Source of the DNA: Escherichia coli
Lineage (GTDB): Bacteria > Pseudomonadota > Gammaproteobacteria > Enterobacterales > Enterobacteriaceae
Assembly: GCF_003018255.1 (NCBI RefSeq)
Contig: NZ_CP027440.1
Length of the DNA stretch: 64,000 bases
Strand: one strand, 5' to 3'
This document shows, one piece after another, positions 65-53,865 of the stretch. The notes beneath the pieces are model-generated. The model was not told the DNA's origin and ran no database searches. It saw only the letters and a list, made by a program, of their open reading frames with translations. How positions within the stretch are numbered: position 1 is the stretch's first letter; the number at the start of each line of letters is the position of its first letter. Both the position numbers and the translations under genes were made by a program.

Positions 65-1114
65 GTGATGACACAACCAATGCCTGGGAAACCGGCCGAA
101 GACGCTGAAAATGAACTGGATATTCGTGGGTTGTTTCGTACCTTGTGGGCTGGGAAGCTGTGGATTATTGGCATGGGGCTGGCGTTTGCGTTAATCGCGC
201 TGGCGTATACTTTTTTTGCTCGCCAGGAGTGGAGCTCGACAGCGATTACCGATCGTCCAACGGTGAATATGCTGGGGGGATATTACTCACAGCAGCAATT
301 TTTGCGTAACCTGGATGTCCGTTCAAACATGGCTTCTGCCGACCAACCATCGGTCATGGACGAAGCTTATAAAGAGTTTGTTATGCAACTGGCCTCGTGG
401 GATACCCGCAGAGAGTTCTGGCTGCAAACCGACTATTACAAACAGCGGATGGTGGGCAACAGCAAAGCCGATGCGGCGTTGCTGGATGAAATGATCAACA
501 ACATCGTGTTTATTCCCGGTGACTTCACCCGCGCGGTCAATGACAGCGTGAAGCTGATTGCCGAAACTGCGCCTGACGCTAATAACCTGTTACGTCAGTA
601 TGTTGCTTTTGCCAGCCAGCGTGCAGCCAGCCATCTGAATGATGAGCTGAAAGGCGCATGGGCGGCACGCACCATCCAGATGAAAGCTCAGGTGAAGCGT
701 CAGGAAGAGGTGGCGAAAGCCATCTACGATCGCCGGATGAACAGTATTGAACAGGCGCTGAAAATTGCTGAGCAGCATAATATTTCGCGCAGTGCGACAG
801 ATGTGCCTGCCGAGGAATTACCTGATTCAGAAATGTTCCTGCTTGGGCGTCCAATGCTCCAGGCTCGACTGGAAAATTTACAGGCCGTCGGTCCGGCCTT
901 TGATCTCGACTATGATCAGAATCGGGCCATGTTAAACACCCTGAATGTTGGTCCAACCCTGGATCCGCGTTTTCAGACCTATCGCTATTTTCGTACGCCG
1001 GAAGAACCGGTAAAACGCGATAGCCCACGTCGTGCCTTCCTGATGATTATGTGGGGCATTGTCGGGGGACTGATCGGGGCTGGTGTCGCATTAACCCGCC
1101 GTTGCTCGAAATAG
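65..1114 (+). CDS. wzzE: ECA polysaccharide chain-length modulation protein
   Basis: 349 aa ORF; N-terminus [23 protein letters not shown] with TM segments at both ends typical of Wzz/PCP; first gene of the ECA cluster order. Confidence 0.9.
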
Positions 1115-1169
1115 CAACACTGCTGCGGTGAGCGCAAAGGCGCTCGCCGCTTATTCGAAGAGAATCGAT

Positions 1170-2300
1170 GTGAAAGTACTGACTGTATTTGGTACGCGCC
1201 CGGAAGCCATCAAGATGGCGCCGTTGGTGCATGCGTTGGCAAAAGATCCTTTTTTTGAGGCTAAAGTTTGCGTCACTGCGCAGCATCGGGAGATGCTCGA
1301 TCAGGTGCTGAAACTCTTTTCCATTGTACCTGACTACGATCTCAACATAATGCAGCCAGGACAGGGCCTTACAGAGATAACCTGTCGGATTCTGGAAGGG
1401 CTAAAACCTATTCTTGCCGAGTTCAAACCAGACGTCGTGCTGGTTCACGGCGATACTACGACGACGCTGGCAACCAGCCTGGCGGCGTTTTATCAGCGTA
1501 TTCCTGTTGGTCACGTTGAGGCTGGTCTGCGCACGGGCGATCTCTATTCGCCGTGGCCGGAAGAGGCTAACCGTACATTGACCGGGCATCTGGCGATGTA
1601 TCACTTCTCTCCAACCGAAACTTCCCGGCAAAACTTGCTGCGTGAAAACGTTGCGGATAGCCGAATCTTCATTACTGGTAATACAGTCATTGATGCACTG
1701 TTATGGGTGCGTGACCAGGTGATGAGCAGCGACACGCTGCGTTCAGAACTGGCGGCAAATTACCCGTTTATCGACCCCAATAAAAAAATGATTCTGGTGA
1801 CCGGTCACAGGCGTGAGAGCTTCGGTCGTGGCTTTGAAGAAATCTGCCATGCGCTGGCAGACATCGCCACCACGCACCAGGACATCCAGATTGTCTATCC
1901 GGTGCATCTCAACCCGAACGTCAGAGAGCCGGTCAATCGCATTCTGGGGCACGTGAAAAATGTCATTCTGATCGATCCCCAGGAGTATTTACCGTTTGTC
2001 TGGCTGATGAACCACGCCTGGCTGATTTTGACCGACTCAGGCGGCATTCAGGAAGAAGCGCCTTCGCTGGGGAAACCGGTGCTGGTAATGCGCGATACCA
2101 CTGAGCGTCCGGAAGCGGTGACGGCGGGTACGGTGCGTCTGGTAGGCACGGATAAGCAGCGAATTGTCGAGGAAGTGACGCGTCTTTTAAAAGACGAAAA
2201 CGAATATCAAGCTATGAGCCGCGCCCATAACCCGTATGGTGATGGTCAGGCATGCTCTCGCATTCTGGAAGCGTTAAAAAATAATCGGATATCACTATGA
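1170..2300 (+). CDS. wecB: UDP-N-acetylglucosamine 2-epimerase
   Basis: ORF track starts at 1128; in-frame GTG at 1170 ([18 protein letters not shown]) gives the expected 376 aa non-hydrolysing epimerase; stop overlaps next start (ATGA at 2297-2300). Confidence 0.9.
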
Positions 2301-3559
2301 GTTTTGCGACCATTTCTGTTATCGGACTGGGTTACATCGGGCTGCCTACAGCAGCTGCGTTTGCCTCTCGGCAAAAACAGGTGATTGGTGTCGATATCAA
2401 CCAACACGCAGTTGATACCATCAATCGTGGCGAAATCCATATCGTCGAACCTGATTTGGCGAGCGTAGTAAAAACTGCCGTAGAAGGCGGTTTTTTACGA
2501 GCGAGCACGACGCCAGTTGAAGCGGATGCCTGGCTGATTGCTGTACCCACGCCGTTTAAAGGCGATCATGAGCCAGATATGACCTACGTTGAATCGGCTG
2601 CTCGCTCCATTGCGCCAGTGCTGAAAAAAGGCGCGCTGGTGATCCTTGAATCCACCTCGCCGGTGGGGTCAACCGAGAAGATGGCAGAATGGTTAGCAGA
2701 GATGCGTCCAGATCTCACTTTCCCACAGCAGGTGGGTGAGTTGGCGGACGTCAACATTGCTTACTGCCCGGAACGCGTGTTACCGGGCCAGGTTATGGTC
2801 GAGCTGATTAAAAACGATCGCGTGATTGGTGGTATGACGCCGGTTTGTTCGGCCCGCGCCAGCGAACTGTACAAAATTTTCCTCGAAGGTGAGTGTGTCG
2901 TCACTAACTCGCGGACGGCGGAAATGTGTAAGCTCACCGAAAACAGCTTCCGCGATGTGAATATCGCTTTTGCTAACGAACTGTCGCTGATTTGTGCCGA
3001 TCAGGGAATTAACGTCTGGGAACTGATTCGCCTGGCGAATCGTCACCCTCGCGTTAATATTCTTCAGCCTGGTCCTGGCGTGGGCGGTCACTGCATTGCT
3101 GTTGATCCGTGGTTTATCGTGGCACAGAACCCGCAGCAGGCGCGGCTTATCCGTACCGCGCGCGAAGTGAACGATCACAAACCGTTCTGGGTTATCGATC
3201 AGGTGAAAGCGGCGGTTGCCGACTGCCTTGCTGCTACCGATAAACGCGCCAGTGAACTGAAAATCGCCTGCTTTGGTCTGGCGTTTAAACCGAATATTGA
3301 TGACCTGCGCGAAAGCCCGGCGATGGAAATCGCTGAACTGATCGCCCAGTGGCATAGCGGCGAAACTCTGGTTGTTGAGCCTAACATCCACCAGTTGCCG
3401 AAAAAACTGACCGGGCTTTGTACTCTGGCGCAGCTTGACGAGGCGCTGGCAACGGCAGACGTGCTGGTGATGCTGGTCGATCATAGTCAGTTCAAAGTTA
3501 TCAATGGCGACAATGTCCATCAGCAGTATGTCGTCGATGCCAAAGGAGTCTGGCGCTGA
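2297..3559 (+). CDS. wecC: UDP-N-acetyl-D-mannosamine dehydrogenase
   Basis: 420 aa; N-terminal Rossmann motif [15 protein letters not shown]; UDP-sugar dehydrogenase family; position in ECA cluster. Confidence 0.9.
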
Positions 3560-4644: not shown

Positions 4645-5526
4645 ATGAAAGGTATTATCCTGGCGGGCGGTTCCGGCACCCGATTGCATCCGATTACGCG
4701 CGGCGTATCGAAGCAACTGTTGCCGATTTACGATAAGCCAATGATTTACTATCCGCTGTCGGTGCTGATGCTGGCCGGTATCCGCGAAATTCTCATCATC
4801 ACTACGCCGGAAGATAAAGGTTATTTCCAGCGCCTGCTGGGCGATGGTAGTGAGTTCGGTATCCAGCTGGAATATGCCGAGCAGCCCAGTCCGGACGGTC
4901 TGGCGCAGGCCTTTATCATCGGTGAAACCTTCCTCAACGGTGAACCTTCTTGTCTGGTGCTGGGCGATAACATCTTCTTCGGACAGGGCTTCAGTCCGAA
5001 GCTGCGTCATGTTGCGGCGCGCACGCAAGGCGCGACGGTATTTGGCTATCAGGTGATGGATCCGGAACGCTTTGGCGTCGTGGAGTTTGACGACAATTTC
5101 CGCGCTATCTCGCTGGAAGAAAAGCCAAAACAGCCGAAGTCAAACTGGGCGGTGACCGGGCTTTATTTCTACGACAGTAAAGTCGTGGAGTACGCAAAGC
5201 AGGTGAAGCCGTCGGAGCGTGGTGAACTGGAGATTACCTCCATCAACCAGATGTACCTCGAGGCGGGCAACCTGACCGTTGAACTGCTCGGGCGCGGATT
5301 TGCCTGGCTGGACACTGGCACTCACGACAGCCTGATTGAAGCCAGCACCTTTGTACAGACGGTGGAAAAACGCCAGGGCTTTAAGATTGCCTGCCTGGAA
5401 GAGATCGCCTGGCGTAACGGCTGGCTTGATGACGAAGGCGTGAAGCGCGCCGCCAGCTCGCTGGCGAAAACTGGCTACGGCCAATATCTGCTGGAGTTAC
5501 TTCGTGCCCGTCCGCGCCAGTATTGA
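4645..5526 (+). CDS. rffH: glucose-1-phosphate thymidylyltransferase
   Basis: 293 aa; [18 protein letters not shown] nucleotidyltransferase signature (RmlA family). Confidence 0.9.
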
Positions 5527-48520: not shown

Positions 48521-50782
48521 ATGACAATTCTTAATCACACCCTCGGTTTCCCTCGCGTTGGCCTGCGTCGCGAGCTGAAAAAAGCGCAAGAGAGTTATTG
48601 GGCGGGGAACTCCACGCGTGAAGAACTGCTGGCTGTTGGGCGTGAATTACGTGCCCGTCACTGGGATCAACAAAAGCAGGCGGGTATCGACCTGCTGCCG
48701 GTGGGCGATTTTGCCTGGTACGATCATGTACTGACCACCAGTCTGCTGCTGGGTAACGTTCCGCCACGTCATCAGAACAAAGATGGTTCGGTAGATATCG
48801 ACACCCTGTTCCGTATTGGTCGTGGACGTGCACCGACTGGCGAACCTGCGGCGGCAGCGGAAATGACCAAATGGTTTAACACCAACTATCACTACATGGT
48901 GCCGGAGTTCGTTAAAGGCCAACAGTTCAAACTGACCTGGACGCAGCTGCTGGAGGAAGTGGACGAGGCGCTGGCGCTGGGCCACAAGGTCAAGCCCGTG
49001 CTGCTGGGGCCGGTTACCTACCTGTGGCTGGGTAAAGTGAAAGGTGAACAGTTTGATCGCCTGAGCCTGCTGAACGACATTCTGCCGGTTTATCAGCAAG
49101 TGTTGGCAGAACTGGCAAAACGCGGCATTGAGTGGGTACAGATCGACGAACCAGCGCTGGTACTGGAACTACCGCAGGCGTGGCTGGACGCATACAAACC
49201 CGCTTACGACGCGCTCCAGGGCCAGGTGAAACTGCTGCTGACTACCTATTTTGAAGGCGTAACGCCAAATCTCGACACGATTACTGCGCTGCCTGTTCAG
49301 GGGCTGCATGTGGACCTTGTACATGGTAAAGATGACGTTGCTGAACTGCACAAGCGTCTGCCTTCTGACTGGCTACTGTCTGCGGGTCTGATCAATGGTC
49401 GTAACGTCTGGCGCGCCGATCTTACCGAGAAATATGCGCAAATTAAGGACATTGTCGGCAAACGCGATTTGTGGGTGGCATCTTCCTGCTCGTTGCTGCA
49501 CAGCCCCATCGACCTGAGCGTGGAAACGCGTCTTGATGCAGAAGTGAAAAGCTGGTTTGCCTTCGCCCTACAAAAATGCCATGAACTGGCACTGCTGCGC
49601 GATGCGCTGAACAGTGGTGATACGGCGGCTCTGGCAGAATGGAGCGCTCCGATTCAGGCGCGTCGTCACTCTACCCGTGTCCATAATCCGGCGGTAGAAA
49701 AGCGTCTTGCAGCCATTACCGCCCAGGACAGTCAGCGTGCGAATGTCTATGAAGTGCGTGCTGAAGCCCAGCGTGCGCGTTTTAAACTGCCCGCGTGGCC
49801 GACTACCACGATTGGTTCCTTCCCGCAAACCACGGAAATTCGTACACTGCGTCTGGATTTCAAAAAGGGTAATCTCGACGCCAACAACTACCGCACGGGC
49901 ATTGCGGAACATATCAAGCAGGCCATTGTCGAGCAGGAACGTTTGGGACTGGATGTGCTGGTACATGGCGAGGCCGAGCGTAATGACATGGTGGAATACT
50001 TTGGCGAGCATCTGGATGGCTTTGTCTTTACGCAAAACGGTTGGGTACAGAGCTACGGTTCCCGCTGCGTGAAGCCACCGATTGTCATTGGTGACGTTAG
50101 CCGCCCGGCACCAATTACCGTGGAGTGGGCGAAATATGCACAATCGCTGACCGACAAACCGGTGAAAGGGATGCTGACGGGGCCGGTAACCATACTCTGC
50201 TGGTCATTCCCGCGTGAAGATGTCAGCCGTGAAACCATCGCCAAACAAATTGCGCTGGCGCTGCGTGATGAAGTGGCGGACCTGGAAGCCGCTGGAATTG
50301 GCATCATCCAGATTGATGAACCGGCACTGCGCGAAGGTTTACCGCTGCGTCGCAGCGACTGGGATGCCTATCTCCAGTGGGGCGTGGAGGCTTTCCGTAT
50401 CAACGCCGCCGTGGCGAAAGATGACACACAAATCCACACTCACATGTGTTACTGCGAGTTCAACGACATCATGGATTCGATTGCGGCGCTGGACGCAGAC
50501 GTCATCACCATCGAAACCTCGCGTTCCGACATGGAGTTGCTGGAGTCGTTTGAAGAGTTTGATTATCCAAATGAAATTGGTCCAGGCGTCTATGACATTC
50601 ACTCGCCAAACGTACCGAGCGTGGAATGGATTGAAGCCCTGCTGAAGAAAGCGGCAAAACGCATTCCGGCAGAGCGTCTGTGGGTAAACCCGGACTGTGG
50701 CCTGAAAACGCGCGGCTGGCCAGAAACCCGCGCGGCACTGGCGAACATGGTGCAGGCGGCGCAGAATTTGCGTCGGGGATGA
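48521..50782 (+). CDS. metE: cobalamin-independent methionine synthase
   Basis: 753 aa; [23 protein letters not shown]-terminus; C-terminal zinc-binding motifs ([16 protein letters not shown]). Confidence 0.95.
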
Positions 50783-50950: not shown

Positions 50951-51211
50951 TTATTTATTCTCACGTTGCACGAGATTGTATCCCTTTTCACTAACGTGGT
51001 AGTGAGGCATAGACTTATGCCCGCTATCCTCAATAATAACCAAACCTTCGTTAGCTAATTTGTTAACAATATTAACAATATTACCGAATCCTGGTATTTG
51101 CCTTATGGATAGTGTGCGATCGAGATTCATCCAGTTCCAGTTTATATCTTTCTCAGTCATAACGTTCAGCACGTTAAGTTCATTTTTAGTGATCACGATA
51201 TTCTGTACCAA
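50951..51211 (-). CDS. second paralog of putative immunity protein (possible orphan immunity)
   Basis: 86 aa; clearly paralogous to the 51271-51528 product (shared IVxxNxLxVMxEKDIxWxWMxLDRTLxIRxIPGFGNxxNIVxKLxNxGLVxI pattern); AT-rich. Confidence 0.55.
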   Translation of the reverse strand: MVQNIVITKNELNVLNVMTEKDINWNWMNLDRTLSIRQIPGFGNIVNIVNKLANEGLVIIEDSGHKSMPHYHVSEKGYNLVQRENK

Positions 51212-51270
51212 AATTGATGAGTATCTTATTGAAAGATCACAATGTAAATCATGCTCCTGTAATGGCTGGA

Positions 51271-51528
51271 TCAGAAGAGGTTGTCTTGTTGTTCTTTGAT
51301 AAGATTCAATCCATATTGAGAAACTCTGTAGCGTGGTTTAGAGTTGCCCTCACCATTTACGATATCAACCAACCCATGATTAACCAGCTTTGTTACGATA
51401 TTCGCTACGTTGCCAAATCCTGGAATATTTCGTATAGCTAAAGTACGATCCAGCACCATCCAGCTCCAGTCAATATCTTTCTCAGCCATAACTTTCAGCA
51501 CGTTAAATTCAACTATCGTAATCGTCAT
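51271..51528 (-). CDS. putative cognate immunity protein of the Hcp-fusion effector
   Basis: 85 aa; start codon overlaps the stop of the upstream Hcp-fusion gene (ATGA at 51525-51528), the arrangement typical of effector-immunity pairs. Confidence 0.55.
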   Translation of the reverse strand: MTITIVEFNVLKVMAEKDIDWSWMVLDRTLAIRNIPGFGNVANIVTKLVNHGLVDIVNGEGNSKPRYRVSQYGLNLIKEQQDNLF

Positions 51529-52658
51529 TTTTTTGCATCCGGATGAAATAAGTCAGTATCTTTAATTTTAAAGTCTTCTAGAGTTGCAGTATGTACATTA
51601 TTCCATAATTCATATCCATCTAAACCTTTCGGTTCACCTGTTTCCCATCCTAAATTACAATAACGCTGATACTCGCGACATTCATGAGTATAGTAGTTCA
51701 GATCGTATTTTTCAGGAAGCAATTCTTTATTTGCTATTTTCTTTAGCCTTGAAATCATTACATCATTAGCTGGATCATGATCAAATCTGGAGATATGCTT
51801 TTCAACAATAGCGATACCTTCCCTGTTGATTGTTACGCCATCTATCGTCAGGTTTTCAATTGGACCACCGGCAAGGTCGGGATTAAATGGTCTTCCTGAT
51901 ACTGCTCCTCTGGCTCCGAAATGCTCAAGTGATTCCAAATCAGGGAATCTCATTCTTCCCAGAACAACTCCAGCAACTATTGAAGCACCAGCGATGAGTA
52001 ACCCTTTGTTATCCATAACTTGATCGTAACCAGCAGGTGCATCTCCTCCCAACTTGTTTGCTGTTTCCCTGAATCCTTCGATATTCCCATTGTATATGCC
52101 GCCAGCAGCAAGCAGTCTGCCAACCGCTTTACTATTGAGTGTTTTGAGGCCATTATCATCTTTAGTTTTTGGCCGTGGTATAAACAGACGGTTGTAGTTA
52201 TCGGGAAATGCCAAATAACTAAATTCAGTATTAGCAATCAGATGCCTGGAGAGTATATATTCATAACTGGCAGTGATGGTTTCTGTATCCAGATTGTTCT
52301 CAGTAAACAGGTGATTGATTGCTGATAAGAGCGCGCCGCGGAGTTGAATGTTGTAATATTTCTCCCATCGACCAAATCTATTGATCCGATAGAAGTCAAA
52401 CTCCATGAACAACTGCTCGTTATTGTTAATAGCGTTAATAAGTAACGGGGAGCTTTTGTCAATCAACTTACAGAAACTAAGGCCATGTAATTGTGACCCT
52501 TTGCCTGTATTCGTAATACTATTAGATAGCGAGAACGCGAAGATTTCATCTTCATGGCCAATCTGCCAGCGATTACCTATTGATGCGCTCGTTCCGCAAC
52601 GAGAGGAAATACATCCTTGTTGTTCTCCGGTTATGGTCAGGTAAATAATATCACTCAT
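51525..52658 (-). CDS. Hcp-domain protein with C-terminal extension (candidate T6SS Hcp-effector fusion, Hcp-ET-like)
   Basis: 377 aa; N-terminal ~165 aa match the Hcp tube-protein signature (YLTITGEQQG...DEIFAFSLSNSITNTGKGS...LSFCKLIDKSSPLLINA; compare Hcp FIKIGDVKGES...IDVLAWSWG...LSFTKYIDKSTPNL); ~210 aa C-terminal extension of unrecognised fold; AT-rich. Confidence 0.7.
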   Translation of the reverse strand: MSDIIYLTITGEQQGCISSRCGTSASIGNRWQIGHEDEIFAFSLSNSITNTGKGSQLHGLSFCKLIDKSSPLLINAINNNEQLFMEFDFYRINRFGRWEKYYNIQLRGALLSAINHLFTENNLDTETITASYEYILSRHLIANTEFSYLAFPDNYNRLFIPRPKTKDDNGLKTLNSKAVGRLLAAGGIYNGNIEGFRETANKLGGDAPAGYDQVMDNKGLLIAGASIVAGVVLGRMRFPDLESLEHFGARGAVSGRPFNPDLAGGPIENLTIDGVTINREGIAIVEKHISRFDHDPANDVMISRLKKIANKELLPEKYDLNYYTHECREYQRYCNLGWETGEPKGLDGYELWNNVHTATLEDFKIKDTDLFHPDAKK

Positions 52659-53049
52659 CCTTGAAAAACCTTTTGTTAATTCTTTTGTGAAAGAAAAATA
52701 GTATTGTTATTTTTTACCTTTATTTACGCCCAAAAGGGATGAACTAAAATGTGAAAAACAAAATGTTTCACTTTAATATCTTTTTATCAGGAAGGTCTGA
52801 GATAATTTATAATTAATGTGAATGTGTTGATAATAATTAATGTTTGTTTGAGAATGGGAGTTGATGGTAAATCTCTAAGGTGTCTGCCAGTGAAGAGACT
52901 CATTTATGACTATGACTTGCCGACTTTCTTAAGGTCAAATAGCGGAGTCGTGCTCTCCAATCAATTCATACTGATTATTTTTTGGGGGACAGAGATGGCA
53001 GCAAAATGCACTCGTTCACTCACCATCTCAAATATAGACTAAGAGGAAA

Positions 53050-53865
53050 CTAATTCCGCTTCCCACCATACTGCTTAAACCACTCCAGCATACGCTGCCA
53101 GCCATCTTTCGCAGATTCGGCATGATAGCTCGGGCGATAATCGGCGTTGAATGCATGCCCGGCATCCGGGTAGACGATAATCTCTGCTTTCGCATTAGCA
53201 GCCCGCAGCGCCTGGCGCATGGTTTCAACGCTCTCCTGCGGAATGCTGTTATCCTGACCACCATATAAGCCGAGAACCGGCGCGTTAAGATCGGTTGCGA
53301 TATCAACAGGTTGTTTCGGTGAATTCAGCGACTTGTCGCCCGTCAGTTTGCCGTACCACGCCACTGCGGCTTTTAGCTGTGGATTATGCGCGGCATACAG
53401 CCAGGTGATACGTCCACCCCAGCAGAATCCGGTGATCATTAAACGATGAACATCGCCGCCGTTGCGGGAAGCCCAACTGGCGACATGATCGAGATCGGCC
53501 AGCACCTGCGAGTCAGGCACTTTTGCTACCAGACCGCTAAGCAACGTGGGGATATCGGCAAAATCATTCGGATCGCCTTCGCGGAAGTAAAGTTCAGGTG
53601 CAATAGCCAGATACCCCTCCAGCGCCAGACGGCGACAAATGTCGCGGATATGTTCATGCACGCCAAAAATTTCCTGCACTACAATGACCACTGGCAGTGG
53701 GCCATCGCTTTGCTTTGGTCTGGCATGGTAAGCAGGCATGTTATCCCCTTGTGAAGGGATAGAGGTGAAGCCCGCCACAATCGCGTCGTCCGGAGTCTGA
53801 ACGATGGTCGAAGCGAGAGGCGATGCCGCAGGTGCAAATCCAGATTGTTGTGTTGTTGCCATGGT
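53050..53865 (-). CDS. ysgA: dienelactone hydrolase-family protein YsgA
   Basis: ORF track starts at 53928; ATG at 53865 (MATTQQSGFAPAASPL) gives ~271 aa; alpha/beta hydrolase with GFCWGG nucleophile motif. Confidence 0.8.
   Translation of the reverse strand, partial: TMATTQQSGFAPAASPLASTIVQTPDDAIVAGFTSIPSQGDNMPAYHARPKQSDGPLPVVIVVQEIFGVHEHIRDICRRLALEGYLAIAPELYFREGDPNDFADIPTLLSGLVAKVPDSQVLADLDHVASWASRNGGDVHRLMITGFCWGGRITWLYAAHNPQLKAAVAWYGKLTGDKSLNSPKQPVDIATDLNAPVLGLYGGQDNSIPQESVETMRQALRAANAKAEIIVYPDAGHAFNADYRPSYHAESAKDGWQRMLEWFKQYGGKRN

Follow-up and report, generated by a model that had tools for sequence, protein, structure and literature searches.

Why does a single toxin gene have two related small genes behind it, and what does each of them do? 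The question is raised by a locus within a 64,000-nucleotide (nt) stretch of Escherichia coli DNA (assembly GCF_003018255.1, contig NZ_CP027440.1; referred to as the window), in which the gene for a type VI secretion system (T6SS) effector, fused to the tube protein Hcp, is followed by two small open reading frames (ORFs), here named imm1 and imm2. The initial annotation, which covered positions 50,951–51,528, took these ORFs for tandem duplicated, immunity-like genes. Based on comparative sequence analysis, we consider it likely that imm1 is the cognate immunity gene of the effector's C-terminal tip, designated type A, that imm2 is an orphan immunity gene of another tip specificity, type B, and that the two came to lie side by side via cassette exchange. 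The features concerned are the following (lengths in amino acids, aa):

51525..52658, minus strand: Hcp-fused T6SS effector gene (377 aa), encoding Hcp, a linker and, at the C-terminus, a toxin domain; RefSeq name tssD.
51271..51528, minus strand: imm1, predicted cognate immunity gene of the type-A tip (85 aa, ATG start), assigned by its ATGA overlap, its clade and its predicted winged helix.
51197..51270, minus strand: imm1-imm2 spacer (74 nt, 33.8% GC), absent from type-B alleles.
50951..51196 (GTG start, 81 aa, as in RefSeq) or 50951..51211 (TTG start, 86 aa), minus strand: imm2, putative orphan immunity gene of type-B specificity, assigned by its identity to, and its clade with, type-B genes.
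51200..51790, minus strand: putative type-A-specific cassette, comprising imm1, the spacer and the ~85 terminal toxin codons, which encode the divergent tip, delimited by sliding-window identity between the window and a type-B locus (L020).

Both small genes lie where the initial annotation had placed them, on the minus strand and with lengths of 85 and 81/86 aa, and they are clear paralogs. BLASTP aligns imm1 and imm2 without gaps at 46 identities over 80 residues (58%; E = 6e-32), with the shared core motif present. The substantial divergence noted at the outset is borne out by a nonsynonymous divergence (dN) of 0.33 and a synonymous divergence (dS) of 1.2–1.6, i.e. saturation. Plus-strand positions 51525–51528 read TCAT, which is ATGA on the minus strand, confirming the described stop/start overlap (4 nt, effector TGA with imm1 ATG); imm1 is thereby translationally coupled to the effector gene. 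In a neighbor-joining tree, imm1 and imm2 appeared as sisters in 0 of 200 bootstraps. Instead, imm1 shares 77% identity with an orphan from Citrobacter, and imm2 is 79–88% identical to type-B genes of Citrobacter and E. coli. As each of the two thus has closer relatives elsewhere than in its neighbor, they must have split long before becoming adjacent. The saturated dS, the absence of a sister relationship and the closer orthologs in other genera rule out a local tandem duplication as the origin of the pair; of the original designation "tandem duplicated", the paralogy therefore stands and the local duplication falls.

How the two genes became neighbors is indicated by other alleles of the same locus. 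The locus is present in 848 of 5426 complete E. coli genomes, about 722 of which carry type A and about 126 type B. Type-B alleles occupy the same site between metE and ysgA and bear a single immunity gene, the ortholog of the window's imm2. The alternative C-terminal cassette for which the initial annotation had suggested looking thus exists at this very position, as a type-B tip with one immunity gene in ~126 E. coli genomes, and its proposal that the second gene is an orphan of an alternative effector variant gains support from this ortholog. A comparison of the window with L020 revealed a mosaic. From upstream of hcp to ~51790, the two are 93–100% identical; over the last ~85 toxin codons (51790–51540), identity drops to 58–82%; imm1 and the spacer (~51540–51200) have no counterpart in type B; and across imm2 (51180–50940), identity is back to 93–98%. 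At the protein level, the type-A toxin has an overall identity of 80% to its type-B counterpart, with the differences gathered in the tip. This profile therefore points to a recombinational exchange of a tip-plus-immunity cassette beside a resident immunity gene.

The type-B effector is often broken in STEC (Shiga toxin-producing E. coli) strains, by a frameshift and an internal stop in strain 2014C-3061 (L002 3303–4429) and by an IS3 insertion in strain 95-3192 (L003 3303–5760). The immunity gene remains intact behind these broken effectors and therefore outlives the toxin.

If imm1 and imm2 encode immunity proteins of different specificity, their relatives should accompany correspondingly different toxin tips. 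We read loci from a one-genome-per-species collection, from exact-protein look-ups and from E. coli genomes, and found a family member directly behind the toxin domain in at least 13 lineages, mostly with overlapping stop and start codons. The overlap, or a gap of at most 10 nt, is seen in E. coli types A and B, Lonsdalea, Enterobacter sp., Pantoea agglomerans, E. chuandaensis, Mangrovibacter, Citrobacter sp. FP75, another Citrobacter and Salmonella. In addition, the toxin (E = 3.6e-62) is carried by a PAAR protein, which is followed by the immunity gene (E = 3.7e-18) and preceded by a gene for a DcrB/Eag-type chaperone, and two more metagenomic lineages have a family member behind the toxin domain. 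The scaffolds that bear the toxin-immunity module comprise Hcp, Hcp-less or PF26362 (DUF8093) N-termini, PAAR and a large protein cut by a contig end. Across these loci, four toxin tail types pair with four immunity clades:

Type A: toxin tail ...LEDFKxKDxDLFHPDAxK; window, Lonsdalea, Enterobacter, Pantoea; imm1 clade (PRYRVS).
Type B: toxin tail ...LEDYxLKGxxxDLYHxDAxxYDx; E. coli L020 and PCN033, Citrobacter L025, Mangrovibacter; imm2 clade (SMPHYHV).
Type C: toxin tail ...HPDAPSW; Salmonella; an immunity clade of its own.
Type E: no tail given; Citrobacter FP75; an immunity clade of its own.

The types cut across genera. In a Mantel test, which ignores shared ancestry, distances over the last 90 alignment columns of the toxins correlated with those of the adjacent immunity proteins (r = 0.73, p = 0.0004; nine pairs from six genera). 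Moreover, imm2 grouped with the type-B cognates at 100% and imm1 with the type-A cognates at 91.5% bootstrap support (neighbor-joining, 200 replicates). Type-A loci outside E. coli contain an imm1-type gene only, which fits the second gene having arisen at this E. coli site.

Some members of the family are orphans: one of the imm2 clade and one of the imm1 clade are found in Citrobacter koseri-type loci, each at the end of Hcp-toxin cassettes that have unrelated tips and unrelated first immunity genes. Adjacency to the toxin domain, co-variation with its tip and orphans behind unrelated toxins thus bear out, at the level of comparative genomics, the initial description of the two ORFs as immunity-like. 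Two genes of 84 aa that follow an Hcp effector in Citrobacter were candidates for a conserved tandem pair, which was rejected upon translation: the first gene is unrelated, and the second alone is an imm1-clade orphan. In one further case (L036 499–1352; L037 1–431), a distant family member lies directly behind an insertion sequence (IS; rve) transposase gene, with the toxin reduced to its last ~20 codons; it is an orphan created by IS insertion.

Imm1 and imm2 represent one family of ~80-aa proteins with a predicted winged-helix fold; based on these results, we suggest that these serve as dedicated immunity proteins of the toxin domain. Imm1 most likely shields the producer and its kin by binding the type-A toxin domain one-to-one. 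Imm2 is the ortholog of the protein that is the sole partner of the type-B tip, at the same site in other E. coli and in Citrobacter. Recombination has probably inserted a tip and its own immunity gene ahead of the resident cassette or swapped them for it. The retained imm2, if expressed and specific for the type-B tip, would probably make type-A strains, including the uropathogenic E. coli (UPEC) lineages CFT073, UTI89 and 536, resistant to type-B attack.

The effector against which these proteins would act has three parts:

52209..52658, minus strand: Hcp tube-protein domain, aa 1–150, supported by profile and PDB Hcp chain matches and by 93–100% nt identity between type A and type B.
51954..52208, minus strand: linker or pre-toxin module, aa 151–235, with a hydrophobic Gly/Ala-rich stretch, GLLIAGASIVAGVVLG.
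51525..51953, minus strand: toxin domain, aa 236–377, predicted all-alpha, with many invariant His, Glu and Arg residues and no solved relative.

The N-terminal 147 residues match TIGR03344 (TssD/Hcp; E = 3.8e-36) as well as Pfam T6SS_HCP and PDB Hcp chains (E down to 2.4e-14); the domain-profile scans that found Hcp returned no match for the other ~230 residues. Linker residues 171–236 (window 51951–52148, minus strand) match two PHROG families of unknown function (E ~5e-15). By tblastn and inspection of loci, Citrobacter effectors and the YhhZ-type effector of E. coli 55989 also have the Hcp-plus-linker module, followed by unrelated toxin tips. Searches of Pfam, NCBIfam, PADLOC and PDB sequences with the toxin domain gave nothing significant. 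In particular, there was no HNH profile match, its model lacks a beta-beta-alpha-metal fold, and the labels "colicin" and "HNH endonuclease" that the Prokaryotic Genome Annotation Pipeline (PGAP) attaches to toxin fragments could not be confirmed. In Enterobacterales, the domain is carried by Hcp, by PF26362 (DUF8093) or by N-termini without a Pfam match. Considered on its own, the toxin domain further occurs on pyocin-like, RHS and LXG proteins. Being fused to several kinds of N-termini, it is therefore a typical polymorphic-toxin tip. The many invariant His, Glu and Arg positions suggest that the toxin domain is an enzyme. A cytoplasmic target is suggested by the immunity proteins, which have no signal peptide-like N-terminus, and by the company that the toxin domain keeps with bacteriocin translocation domains. 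The effector may thus be described as an Hcp tube protein joined by a conserved linker to a predicted all-alpha toxin domain that probably acts in the cytoplasm.

For the small proteins themselves, searches of Pfam, NCBIfam, PADLOC, PHROGs and PDB sequences likewise gave nothing significant. A word-indexed search yielded 170 relatives, all ~80–90 aa long and all from Enterobacterales, many of which bear the NCBI product name "MarR family transcriptional regulator". When 1.84 billion cluster representatives were searched exhaustively with a family profile, only 74 reached E ≤ 0.001, among which two long matches (851 and 522 aa) are repeat proteins and spurious. With just 74 relatives found by profile, the family is therefore small and self-contained, with no branch merging into the MarR/PadR superfamilies. 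An AlphaFold2 model built from a 23-sequence alignment (predicted local distance difference test score 87.7) shows the order helix, strand, helix, helix, beta-hairpin wing, helix. Foldseek matched it to PadR, RosR and MarR regulators in the PDB (probability 1.0, TM 0.7–0.79, identity 12–25%). The proteins are thus predicted to adopt a winged-helix fold (H1-S1-H2-H3-S2-wing-S3), in the model a core plus one C-terminal helix within 81–85 aa, without the MarR dimerization helices. Their net charge is ~0, and hydrophobic residues predominate in the helix that occupies the recognition position (VANIVTKLVN).

Homology to a transcription factor had been named in the initial annotation as a finding that would speak against immunity proteins, and the predicted fold touches on this point. 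However, neither Pfam nor NCBIfam contains a MarR or PadR profile that matches imm1 or imm2, and a PDB profile search reached MarR chains only at E = 0.16–0.32. MarR family membership, as implied by the product name, is ruled out by the lack of a profile match, by a length of 81–85 aa compared to ~140–150 aa for a MarR subunit and by the missing dimerization helices. Neither Pfam nor NCBIfam has an entry for the immunity family or for the toxin domain, and the family is undescribed. A metagenomic protein of 94 aa (P0008) follows imm1 through residue ~54 and imm2 thereafter, and represents either a natural recombinant or an assembly chimera.

Whether imm2 is still a working gene bears directly on the proposed orphan function. 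Its ORF is intact in every type-A locus read, including those of the window, 536 and JNE23-011, among which the protein is identical or differs by one substitution (a conservative V41I in the window), and at least 1000 contigs encode the 81- and 86-aa sequences without any change, the 86-aa form being CFT073 c4753. Compared to the Citrobacter orthologs, imm2 has a dN/dS ratio (omega) of 0.12–0.29, which indicates long-term purifying selection, and the hydrophobic core positions of the family are retained. A promoter-like site (TTTACA-17-GATACT; 51248–51220, minus strand) lies in the spacer just upstream of imm2, and scanning the interval from imm1 to imm2 gave no terminator-like site; co-transcription of the two genes is therefore possible. 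These features render a working orphan function of imm2 plausible.

Several observations weigh against this interpretation, and many of them would fit equally if imm2 were a non-functional relic of a displaced effector-immunity pair, surviving because the cassette exchange is recent. Imm2 starts with GTG or TTG in place of the type-B ATG, it has lost the translational coupling of the type-B gene, and no convincing Shine-Dalgarno sequence was found before either start. Compared to the E. coli type-B gene, its omega is 0.47, and the differences are unevenly spread, with six nonsynonymous and one synonymous in the first 16 codons and four of each in the remaining 64; K12N and A15T affect positions that are otherwise conserved in the family. 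The weak start signals and N-terminal changes could reflect decay, and selection within type A cannot be used to decide, as 0–1 immunity-gene differences between the haplotypes read make a population dN/dS impossible. A displaced-toxin remnant was sought in the imm1-imm2 spacer: the best local alignments to the toxin gene fall on the YTHECREY-coding segment and are not significant, since 10 to 257 of 1000 shuffles reach their score. The exchange may have run in either direction, B gaining imm1 to become A or A losing it to become B, with one event sufficing in each case; whichever applies, imm2 would belong to the type-B specificity. To these points must be added the shared ancestry that the Mantel test passes over, and a literature that, as far as searchable, holds no experiment on the small-protein family; searches with accessions and CFT073 locus tags gave nothing relevant. 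Nevertheless, the intact ORF on so many contigs, the promoter-like site without an intervening terminator and the fact that, past codon 17, just four amino acids differ from type B, with the hydrophobic core kept, speak against a relic, which we regard as unlikely.

Imm1 and imm2 might also both neutralize the window's own toxin, redundantly or to increase the dose. Three repeated immunity genes behind Hcp-ET3-4 in UPEC (review PMC6730261) provide a precedent, and the 58% identity and common predicted fold of the two proteins, along with the 80% identity of type-A and type-B toxins, are compatible with it. Yet type-A toxins in four other genera make do with an imm1-clade gene only, imm2 groups with full support with genes paired to another tip, and the toxins diverge mostly in the tip, whose variation follows that of the immunity gene, so that we find redundancy very doubtful. 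As the predicted fold is that of DNA-binding regulators, a regulatory role is possible in principle: the small proteins could be MarR/PadR-like regulators of the effector operon, either instead of being immunity proteins or, like the antitoxins of toxin-antitoxin systems, in addition to it through autoregulation. The Foldseek matches, sub-threshold winged-helix matches in Pfam, the weak MarR chain matches and the NCBI product name all lean this way. The proteins nevertheless lack any significant regulator profile, the dimerization helices, a charge and recognition helix of the expected kind and kinship with the regulator superfamilies; their genes are strictly linked to one toxin domain, vary together with its tip and form orphan arrays behind unrelated toxins, as is characteristic of immunity genes and not of regulators. 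We therefore deem a regulator highly improbable and retain the reading of imm1 as cognate and imm2 as orphan immunity gene.

A more specific and speculative model, to which we accord only a small probability, holds that the toxin domain represents a new all-alpha enzyme fold common to T6SS effectors and pyocin-like bacteriocins. Its substrate site would be plugged by the nucleic-acid-reading face of the winged-helix immunity protein, made up of helix 3 and the wing, which are the most variable part of the small-protein family; the immunity protein might in addition be a DNA-binding autoregulator of the operon. If such a plug with a dual role existed, it would define an immunity class derived from a transcription-factor fold, resembling the antitoxins of toxin-antitoxin systems.

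Polymorphic toxins, including those of Rhs, contact-dependent inhibition (CDI) and T6SS systems, combine a conserved delivery module with a variable tip and a small downstream immunity gene, and tip and immunity gene are swapped together by recombination. The window locus is alike in its architecture, in the apparent cassette exchange and in an older immunity gene kept downstream; it differs in that its carrier is Hcp rather than Rhs, CdiA or VgrG, and in that no displaced toxin fragment survives. New here is the immunity family; as a polymorphic-toxin locus it is ordinary and leaves the established concepts unchanged. In such systems, older immunity genes kept as orphans can protect against non-self toxins. 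Orphan immunity is described in two reports (PMC10539506, PMC10470768). Types A and B would represent a clean natural specificity pair at one E. coli locus, with major UPEC lineages having type A together with the type-B antidote; if this reading is true, one-sided resistance between E. coli lineages is predicted. In addition, thousands of Enterobacteriaceae genomes list the immunity family and the toxin domain under the names "MarR family transcriptional regulator", "colicin" or "HNH endonuclease"; for the immunity family, the regulator name is a widespread misannotation.

Hcp-fused effectors as such are not new. Ma and co-workers reportedly described, in 2017, the Hcp-ET effectors of Enterobacteriaceae, including the pair Hcp-ET1/ETI1, an HNH-DNase and its immunity protein. 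As in the window, an orphan Hcp gene outside the T6SS cluster with a C-terminal toxin is followed by an immunity gene in these systems. We considered whether the type-B allele, and with it the window locus, corresponds to Hcp-ET1/ETI1, and rejected this notion, as E. coli 55989, a named Hcp-ET1 carrier, has nothing inserted at the metE-ysgA site, and the HNH effector of this strain lies elsewhere. Its YhhZ-type Hcp effector, located at yhhY-ggt (L035 12282–13951), has Hcp and linker modules clearly homologous to those of the window, bears an HNH motif of the classical type and stands before YrhA, a protein of 164 aa. This effector and YrhA are probably Hcp-ET1/ETI1; the 164-aa length of YrhA fits the quoted 99.4% identity to ETI1. 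Hcp-ET1/ETI1 would thus combine an HNH tip with a 164-aa protein, whereas the window combines a predicted all-alpha tip with an unrelated, predicted winged-helix protein of 81–85 aa.

The type-B allele has been encountered before under a different name. The 1149-bp hcp3 of PCN033, an ExPEC (extraintestinal pathogenic E. coli) strain from pigs, lies between ysgA and metE (L033 2501–3884) and is the type-B allele. Peng et al. 2016 (PMC4882540) noted that Hcp3 is encoded far from the T6SS cluster and that its second half lacks homology, and reported roles in invasion and colonization; Hcp3 was treated as an Hcp paralog, with its toxin domain and downstream immunity gene unrecognized. Our analysis reinterprets Hcp3 as an effector with an immunity gene, which bears the type-B tip, whereas the window has the type-A tip and one extra immunity gene. 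In the T6EC4/T6IC4 pair of Citrobacter koseri (PMC11148199), encoded in an orphan operon, the effector is fused to Hcp, its toxin domain is unannotated, and the small immunity protein has been validated. The C. koseri-type loci described above, which may be T6EC4 itself, have an Hcp effector just upstream of an imm1-clade orphan, but the tip and the adjacent 84-aa immunity protein are unrelated to those of the window. PadR and MarR regulators, finally, share the predicted helix-strand-helix-helix-wing-helix topology with the window's small proteins, whose genomic behavior is that of immunity genes.

In the window, which is chromosomal, the ORF list gives the gene order metR, metE (plus strand, ending at 50782), three minus-strand genes, ysgA and udp, and RefSeq annotation of near-identical loci agrees with it. 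The three minus-strand genes between metE and ysgA are the Hcp-toxin gene (377 aa), imm1 (85 aa) and imm2 (81/86 aa). Because the whole island has a GC content of 33–45%, compared to ~55% in the flanking genes, it appears to be a horizontally acquired, AT-rich T6SS effector-immunity island. In E. coli 536-type strains, hxlB-ptsG-tkt replaces ysgA upstream of the Hcp gene (L004 5361–8073 compared to window 52659–53050); the upstream junction of the island therefore varies among type-A strains. The imm1-imm2 spacer contains an 8-codon mini-ORF (51252–51226, minus strand) directly behind an AGGAG.

Beyond E. coli, a family of ~100-aa proteins (SFNxNESAI..DAFT.G.I.APDFE.KY) is encoded beside orphan or cognate immunity members in Kosakonia, Pantoea wallisii, Mangrovibacter and Citrobacter, at these positions:

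L017, L019 and L024, ~4660–4970: ~100-aa neighbor family.
L021, 5296–5484: ~100-aa neighbor family.
L023, 5227–5547: ~100-aa neighbor family.

From its placement, this family looks like a further immunity-type gene of these arrays.

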